Positions 8,352-9,470 of a stretch of 9,470 bases of DNA are shown here, piece by piece. Positions within the stretch are counted from its first letter, which is position 1, and each line of letters opens with the position of its first letter. The notes beneath the pieces are model-generated. The model was not told the origin of the DNA and searched no databases. It saw only the letters and a list, made by a program, of their open reading frames with translations. The stretch comes from a virus. Lineage: Monodnaviria > Loebvirae > Hofneiviricota > Faserviricetes > Tubulavirales. The stretch is from IMG/VR virus record IMGVR_UViG_2667527595_000023. One strand, given 5' to 3'. The translations under genes were made by a program, and so were the position numbers.

Positions 8352-9297
8352 TTGATTCACTTTATTATTCCGCTTCTGTTTTTGTTCTTTTCCTCGTTTT
8401 CTTTCGCTGAAGAGAAAGAAAATCCGGATGCACTTGTTCAGTGTGCAGGCCATTCATCCTGCAGGACAGATTATTCGGACGCGGGGACGTCGATTAAATT
8501 AGCCAGGGCGGCCGGTCATCTTTTCTGTGGTTCGGGCAGTTATGACGCATGTTCCGGAATAATTCATTATTGTGGTGTGCCACTTTCAACGCCTGTTAAT
8601 GCACCTTCGACTGTCGGGTCTTTTGTCCGTGCCCGGTGGTCAGCATATAAAGTCTGGGATTCAGACAAGCAAAAGTGGACAGCCTGCACCCTTGCTTTTC
8701 AGGGTGGTGAGGGGGATTTGACACCTGAATATAATAAGCCGCCAACTGACGAGATTTGTCTTTCTCGTCCGGTTCTTGATGGTATGACTTTTTCTGATGT
8801 TTATAAAGGTGATGACGGGACCCGTTATGTTAATGTGCAGGGGTGTATTTATGAGGCAACCGGTAATCCTCTTATTTGTAATCCCGATGATGATACAGTT
8901 TGTACTGCCGACTGGAAACCAGTTGCTGTAGATCCTGCATTCTCCGATGGTAAGGAGGATGGCGGTAGCTCAGGTGGTGGCAGTTCCGGTGGTGGTAACC
9001 CAGGCGGCGGCAGTTCCGGTGGTGGTTCAGGTTCTGGCTCCGGTGGTTCATCCGGTAGCGGTGGCTCCGGCTCGGGTTCCGGCGGCTCATCCGGCAGTGG
9101 TGGTTCAGGTTCTGGCTCCGGTGGTTCATCCGGTAGCGGTGGCTCCGGCTCGGGTTCCGGCGGCTCATCCGGCAGTGGTGGTTCAGGTTCTGGCTCCGGT
9201 GGTTCATCCGGTAGCGGTGGCTCCGGCTCGGGCTCCGGCGGTTCATCCGGTAGCGGTAGTTCAGGTTCAGGATCCGGTGGCTCATCCGGCGATGACA
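8352..9297 (+). CDS. gIII: Attachment protein pIII, N-terminal domains plus Gly/Ser linker; TTG start; phage homology ends at 9297 although the frame stays open to the window end
   Basis: AGGAG ribosome-binding site at 8339-8343 with TTG at 8352. Signal peptide LIHFIIPLLFLFFSSFSFA. Cys-rich N-domain (VQCAGHSSC...CGSGSYDAC...), then GS repeats. No ATG start, so absent from the supplied ORF track. Confidence 0.7.
9021..9254 (+). repeat. 78-bp in-frame tandem repeat (3 units) encoding the pIII Gly/Ser linker
   Basis: Units at 9021-9098, 9099-9176 and 9177-9254, one more than in the copy at 53-208. Confidence 0.9.
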
Positions 9298-9470
9298 TCA
9301 TCCGGCCAGTTGAAACGCTGCCAGCGTTCCTTCTGGTTGAAATATTCCAGCTCCTGCCCGTCAATCACCAGATGCGTTTTCATCACGTCACGCGCCGGTT
9401 TTGCCCGCAGTTCGAAATGTATTCCCGCATCGCCGCGGGCAAAGGCGGTGTCGGCCACGTCACGCAGGCG
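9282..9470 (-). CDS. 3' end of an unidentified convergent ORF (non-phage flank); 5' end outside window
   Basis: Minus-strand frame open from the window end, reading ...AFARGDAGIHFELRAKPARDVMKTHLVIDGQELEYFNQKERWQRFNWPDDVIAG-stop, with GC3-rich codon usage. The + strand frame is also open here, so strand assignment is uncertain. Confidence 0.3.
   Translation of the reverse strand, partial: RLRDVADTAFARGDAGIHFELRAKPARDVMKTHLVIDGQELEYFNQKERWQRFNWPDDVIAG

Follow-up and report, generated by a model that had tools for sequence, protein, structure and literature searches.

Probable chimeric contig tip joining gIII of an Escherichia coli filamentous phage to the type VI secretion gene tssM

We analysed a stretch of DNA of 9,470 nucleotides, in the following called the window, in which the genome of a filamentous phage of Escherichia coli breaks off within a second copy of gIII, at 9297/9298, and is followed by a fragment of the host type VI secretion system (T6SS) gene tssM. 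Judging from the sequence and from the state of the assembly that contains it, this joint is probably a chimeric contig tip, derived from a library chimera or from very minor molecules, and does not appear to be a structure of the genome. The identities of the joined parts, the status of the window as a whole contig, the ragged condition of its ends and the uniqueness of the joint are shown directly; a chimeric rather than a clonal origin is what we infer.

The Joint in gIII

An earlier note, made from the letters of the window, had placed the end of phage homology at 9297/9298, and direct reading of both gIII copies bears this out. The first copy reads ...CCGGTGGCTCATCCGGCGATGACA|ATGGCTGG across 251/252 (the sequence from 252 onward is also given as ATGGCTGGCTT), and the second copy reads ...CCGGTGGCTCATCCGGCGATGACA|TCATCCGGCCAGTTG across 9297/9298. 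The direct 8-bp repeat that had been described is present as well, with TCATCCGG located at 9282-9289 and again at 9298-9305. In the resulting arrangement of repeat, spacer and repeat, TCATCCGG-CGATGACA-TCATCCGG (9282..9305, without strand), the first 8-mer belongs to the phage and the second is formed by nucleotides 1-8 of the host sequence, the crossover at 9297/9298 being blunt. We confirm that the junction is present in the contig sequence in the form in which the earlier reader described it.

The flank is indeed GC-rich, with 59% GC versus 35% in the pIII C-domain that it replaces. Both consequences that had been proposed for the reading frames were also found. The gIII frame that starts at 8352 on the plus strand runs without a stop through the final base of the window and yields a fused pIII in which 315 phage residues are followed by an antisense tail. 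A convergent frame on the minus strand reads ...RWQRFNWPD-DVIAG-stop, its final five codons and the stop being derived from the phage.

Origin of the Flank

A database check of the flank, which had been called non-phage on the basis of its letters, identified its 173 nt as the interior of E. coli tssM. The fragment of this ImcF-related gene (9298..9470, minus strand) corresponds to codons ~955-1012 of 1117 and runs to the contig end. It is identical to tssM in 172 of 173 positions, is oriented antisense to gIII and lies 316 nt ahead of the tssM stop codon. In strain ATCC 11775, the matched gene has tssA, a PAAR gene and tssF upstream and additional PAAR and Tli4-family genes downstream, and identity to an annotated gene within a T6SS cluster allows the flank to be assigned to tssM. 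Of 5,426 complete E. coli genomes, 1,125 contain the same segment, each of them a single time. The sole mismatch in the flank is a private T->G change at 9437 (Ser->Arg), which occurs in 0 of these 1,125 genomes. A full-length TssM with the Ser->Arg change was absent from the collection, but as the remainder of the allele in the query was assumed, this result says nothing about an intact tssM in the assembly. Among complete E. coli genomes, related loci and viral contigs, we found no related phage that carries the flank. The product predicted for the minus strand would comprise TssM residues 1-1012 followed by DVIAG, with the C-terminal 105 residues lost.

Among the complete genomes, 23 contain the phage; one of the 23 also has the tssM segment, and none has the allele (>=99%) seen here, the overlap being taken from record counts (1,125 vs 1,147 records, 23 phage-bearing rows, identity bands). 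The combination of this phage with this tssM allele is therefore otherwise unobserved, which would count as a weak indication, its weight being limited by the mobility of the phage.

Organization of the Phage Genome

Up to position 9297, the window is colinear with and 98-99% identical to prophages in complete E. coli genomes. A core gene set in conserved order, Pfam matches and the colinearity with annotated prophages indicate that the phage is an inovirus. The contig starts inside the first gIII copy, whose Gly/Ser linker array of 2.5 x 78 nt occupies 1..251 (plus strand, like all genes in this section unless stated otherwise). It is followed at 252..739 by the pIII C-terminal domain, that is, by the sequence due after 9297 in an intact gene, and this C-domain aligns colinearly with pIII (451 aa) in two relatives (L004 and L013). 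Next come gVI (739-1098), assigned from the annotation of relatives, and gI (1116-2318) for a Zot-family assembly ATPase (PF05707 Zot, E=2.5e-9). A tandem array of 339-nt units (2332..3066, 2.2 copies, without strand), the copy number of which is variable among relatives, separates gI from gIV (3105..4313), the gene for the secretin (PF00263 Secretin, E=9e-25). An intact dif-like attP, AGTGCGCATAA-TGTGACACGCG-TTATGTTGAAA, recognized with the help of attL and attR of relatives, is located at 4367..4399 (plus strand).

Further downstream, a mosaic regulatory module (4624..5255, without strand as a whole) includes a 66-aa ORF at 4685-4885 on the minus strand and has a match over its whole length in strain TD225-C4 alone (98%). 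The module precedes gII (5260-7260), which encodes a replication endonuclease of the GPA type (PF05840 Phage_GPA, E=8e-49). The 141-aa protein in the gV position (7291-7716) and, likewise within 5260..8291, two small ORFs followed by the major coat gene gVIII (8049-8291) were all assigned from the annotation of relatives. The second gIII copy (8352..9297) comprises, by direct reading, the signal peptide, the N-terminal domains and the linker in 315 codons. Its Gly/Ser array (9019..9289, plus strand) counts 3.5 x 78 nt and thus exceeds the 2.5 units of the first copy and of the closest relatives by exactly one 78-nt period, and the copy is cut 8 nt past the final repeat unit, exactly where the C-domain is expected to start.

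Two regions of the genome show additional variation. The units of the 339-nt array have 96% matches, and the 3' end of gI extends into the array; among relatives, the gap between gI and gIV ranges from ~450 to 1,800 nt, with L013 containing about five 339-nt units. A search of Rfam, which included the 339-nt array (2332-3066), yielded no match. Between attP and gII, other relatives carry different genes for small regulators, with products of 62 aa, 108 aa (HTH) or 153 aa (HTH), in place of the module seen here.

attP and the Question of Xer Integration

Related prophages form tandem arrays directly after hipA, at dif. In these, the transition between host dif and phage falls at 4368-4380, the XerCD exchange zone, both in attL (L006) and in attR (L005, next to hipA), and in attR the phage is followed by an intact host dif, AGTGCGCATAATGTATATTATGTTAAAT. 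The dif-like attP together with the position of the relatives' junctions at the XerC arm and central region places the phage of the window with the XerCD/dif-integrating type. The joint at 9297/9298 is not a product of such integration, because attP is uninterrupted and lies 4.9 kb away, and because the attL and attR of relatives are located at attP; in this point the earlier note was right. No dif-like sequence within 3 mismatches was detected anywhere in the window, junction included. As attP is intact, there is no normal host junction on the contig, and the phage-phage joint that runs across attP would be that of a replicative form (RF) or of the inner part of a tandem array. As a source of the joint at 9297/9298, we also considered an error of the Rep (HUH) nickase at the origin and rejected it, as the joint lies neither at the origin nor at attP and the predicted product does not match.

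The 8-mer at the Breakpoint

When an illegitimate join is mediated by microhomology, one copy of the short homology survives at the crossover. The label "microhomology" that had been given to the repeat does not hold by this standard: the crossover is blunt and both copies of TCATCCGG are retained, 8 nt apart. Homology at the crossover amounts to 0 nt (phage ...GACA|ATGG vs host ...CTGT|TCAT). The intact host allele reads ...GCCACTGT|TCATCCGGCCAG, so that the second TCATCCGG represents host nucleotides 1-8, and the first (9282-9289) is ordinary phage sequence common to all relatives. Since nothing is common at the crossover and both 8-mers have been kept, the joint is not a microhomology-mediated product; the single copy expected from such a reaction is not what the contig contains.

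The 8-mer is nevertheless associated with the breakpoint more closely than chance would predict. Within the 12 kb of the host T6SS locus, the sole TCATCCGG sits at the breakpoint and the phage 8-mer is found 16 nt upstream of it; the upstream gIII Gly/Ser repeat array contains seven copies. When 200,000 junctions were simulated, the initial 8 nt of a random host flank recurred within the last 40 phage nt with a probability of ~0.001 (strict test), and any common 8-mer occurred within +/-40 nt with a probability of ~0.02 (loose test). By these statistics a coincidence is unlikely, as would be the case for a microhomology join, and the finding argues for some base-pairing step.

Illegitimate recombination at short homologies is a familiar process in E. 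coli and its phages, where the endpoints of deletions and of transducing phages lie at short direct repeats. The present joint resembles these cases in having an 8-bp repeat at the breakpoint and differs from them in that both copies are kept and the crossover homology is 0 nt. Several specific schemes were tried and discarded. We could not derive the observed arrangement from simple template switching with the 8-mer as primer, nor from splinted ligation. A hairpin or cruciform at GATGA-CA-TCATC folds no better than shuffled sequence (z-scores 0.1-0.4). A target-site duplication does not apply either, as just CGATGACA stands between the repeats and the first repeat is native phage sequence.

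Contig Ends and State of the Assembly

An exact look-up of the secretin, which returned the same gene coordinates, revealed that the window is the entire 9,470-nt contig CDRQ01000487.1 of the draft assembly GCA_000941195.1. The GenBank contig differs from the window solely at positions 47, 2090 and 5341, where it has N and the window is written with A. Relatives uniformly have G at 2090 and C at 5341, and the A of the window is not a real base; the codons derived from these two N caused exact look-ups of the gI and gII proteins to miss the source contig.

The joint is located 173 nt from the contig end. At the left end, an error cluster private to this contig (35-50, consisting of A35G, a 1-nt deletion, the N at 47 and a G->A change) shifts the gIII frame. 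It was found in no related locus, in none of the 5,426 complete E. coli genomes and in neither the genome nor the metagenome collections, and it is the only private cluster of several bases outside the mosaic module 4624-5255. The module itself has three short private runs in a comparison that rests on one close relative, and the private differences in the remaining interior of the contig are confined to isolated single bases, of which two are N positions. All interior genes are intact, and the defects in gIII are confined to 50 nt at the left and 173 nt at the right contig end.

The difference of one period between the Gly/Ser arrays within a single contig is typical of an unresolved loop in the assembly graph. 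For the phage UPPhi it has been described that the glycine-rich repeats of gIII vary and that short-read assemblies leave such arrays unresolved, and tandem copies that differ from one another have been documented for such phages (PMC7307601). A 12,181-nt contig of the sister draft GCA_000936715.1 (L017) comprises more than one phage unit and two gI alleles (400 and 403 aa), which means that non-identical tandem copies occur in the isolates of the project and that the assembler outputs wrap-around contigs. In two further loci (L007, 10845-11637; L011, 1546-2468), one tandem copy has a gIII that is broken into two shorter ORFs; as this is seen in some complete or nearly complete genomes, gIII is evidently often damaged or mis-assembled in arrays.

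The joint itself is unique to the contig. A junction 30-mer had no match in genome, viral or metagenome contig collections, and window positions 8000-9470, searched against the 5,426 complete genomes of E. coli, gave no record that spans the joint. The fused pIII and the partial ORF at the left end are recorded on CDRQ01000487.1 only, the search with the tail having returned only spurious antisense ORFs within tssM on other contigs, and a literature search on the contig and assembly accession numbers found nothing. The joint thus lies within roughly a read or k-mer length of the end of a complete contig and is not replicated in independent assemblies, as is characteristic of chimeric contig ends.

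A Probable Chimeric Tip and Its Alternatives

A clonal joint is disfavored because single-copy host DNA should then have been assembled onward for kilobases, yet the contig stops after 173 nt. The tail must therefore either be a dead-end tip or merge into the path of an intact tssM, and it follows that the junction is not the sole tssM configuration in the sample. The earlier note had left illegitimate recombination, a deletion and a misassembly side by side. From among these, whole-contig status and ragged ends favor a chimeric tip over a clonal rearrangement, and misassembly in the repeat in its strict sense fails, as phage and host have at most 9 nt in common, which is too short for joining by an assembler. 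To our knowledge, no assembler joins on 8-9 nt, and a misjoin on common sequence was rejected for this reason. Consequently, the joint exists in at least one sequenced molecule, and since a single 100-nt read would not cover the tail of 173 nt, its support must come from at least two reads or from a long one.

We propose the following course of events. The contig, which stems from a fragmented draft, would represent a multi-copy filamentous phage, present as a tandem prophage array or replicative form. The assembler would have gone around the phage unit once and, in doing so, would have crossed the 78-nt array of gIII twice with different unit numbers. Its walk would then have come to a dead end on both sides, on the left in low-quality sequence and on the right in 173 nt of tssM bluntly joined to gIII. 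The joint itself may go back to one chimeric molecule of DNA or to a small number of chimeric reads, which arose when the library was prepared or occurred in no more than a small minority of the molecules, and the tip would have survived since phage coverage is high and the repeat array tangles the graph at this point. Such a joint would be non-clonal and without function, and the truncations of the gIII copies and of tssM would be a by-product of the contig ends. The contig resembles chimeric tips known from high-copy repeats in being a short whole contig with ragged ends, N positions, inconsistent repeats and a unique joint. It differs from them in one respect that speaks against an artefact: the coincidence of the 8-mers is neither predicted nor explained by a random blunt ligation of fragments.

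That coincidence (p ~0.001-0.02) is the main point in favor of a real event in vivo, in which a phage copy from the RF or from an array would have recombined illegitimately into tssM, helped by pairing of TCATCCGG, and would be present clonally or sub-clonally. We regard this as possible, though clearly less likely than a chimeric tip. It would agree with the fact that the joint, with no more than 9 nt in common, must be physical, and with the position of the breakpoint at the edge of a recombination-prone array whose unit number is variable (PMC7307601, for another phage family); divergent tandem copies are likewise documented (PMC7307601; L017). Against it stands that the contig ends after 173 nt of single-copy host DNA, which is unexpected for a clonal structure, and that a recombinant carried by a minority would have to reach several percent in order to be assembled. 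In addition, the joint occurs in no other genome or assembly searched, the crossover has 0 nt of homology with both 8-mers present, and no second junction is present in the contig.

A large deletion or inversion between the last copy of a prophage array residing at dif and tssM is considerably more improbable. The tandem arrays of relatives at dif by hipA, and the phage-phage joint across attP, which fits the interior of an array, would be compatible with it. The argument from the contig end, however, applies equally here, and the dif-side host junction is absent from the contig. Moreover, the dif flanks of relatives contain fimbrial, hipA and autotransporter genes and are devoid of a T6SS within 10-14 kb, so that a large deletion would be needed.

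Filamentous virions tolerate extra DNA, and a fragment of tssM could have been captured in the gIII linker of a circular phage genome. This appears more improbable still, even if the contig does exceed one unit (9,046 nt by right-anchored register): it ends without overlap, closure of the circle from 9470 to 1 would throw pIII out of frame and into stops, and the flank is found in no related phage. Integration by XerCD at a pseudo-dif site, or transposition that duplicates an 8-bp target, to which the direct 8-bp repeat flanking the join and the IS110-family transposase in a variant of the phage might point, is effectively refuted by the intact attP 4.9 kb away, by a junction without dif-like sequence, by a window without a transposase gene, and by repeats that are just 8 nt apart with the first copy being ordinary phage sequence, hence not a target duplication.

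Consequences of Either Reading

If the joint is an artefact, as seems probable, it calls for caution, because draft contigs of tandem or high-copy filamentous prophages can bear chimeric ends of low quality, and such ends look like truncated genes, fused genes and integration at unusual sites. The opposite case, that a dif-type E. coli inovirus recombined illegitimately into tssM beside an 8-bp homology within the gIII linker repeat and thereby disabled both the T6SS membrane complex and its own adsorption protein, has to be regarded as doubtful. TssM's C-terminal domain is needed for the binding of TssJ (PMC4256274, PMC3213119), and its loss would for this reason be expected to inactivate the T6SS; pIII would be left without its C-domain. 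The event would then constitute a route of chromosomal capture independent of Xer for the family of this phage. It would be a single case of modest interest to specialists in phages and the T6SS and would not establish a new kind of mechanism. It would also differ from the situation in Citrobacter rodentium, where tssM is an intact gene with a frameshift that is rescued during transcription (PMC4256274), whereas in the window phage sequence takes the place of the gene's 3' end.

Relationship to Known Inoviruses

YpfPhi/CUS-1 and UPPhi of Enterobacterales (PMC7307601, PMC4266046) as well as the Vibrio phage CTXPhi (PMC3442271) are XerCD/dif inoviruses, with which the phage of the window shares the gene set and a dif-like attP. 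As in UPPhi, its gIII is variable in the glycine-rich repeats (PMC7307601). In contrast to the junctions of XerCD/dif phages, the joint at 9297/9298 is not at attP, and the phage differs from YpfPhi, UPPhi and CTXPhi in belonging to another lineage, with a replication endonuclease of the GPA type and a secretin of its own. Its closest Rep proteins are those of the Vibrio phages fs2/VFJ (29%). A megablast search of 50,697 deposited phage genomes gave no match for this lineage of E. coli inoviruses, which is distinct from UPPhi and YpfPhi and seemingly without a named isolate. It is represented in 23 complete E. coli genomes, and the coat protein is indexed in 1,761 assembly blocks.

Some related loci deviate from the common arrangement. 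A related copy near yjhF (L015, NZ_CM129038.1, 8290-17554) has, immediately upstream of gII, an IS110-family transposase and, after the secretin, a DUF2726 gene. It resides at a locus other than dif, in a genome that also has an array at dif, and this arrangement looks like an alternative integration module within one phage family. In two other loci (L014, 20443-24325; L019, 2131-3102), the secretin of the phage is directly followed at dif by another small filamentous element, which has a Rep_1 / II-X family replication protein and an ssDNA-binding protein, and these arrays are therefore composed of two different phages.
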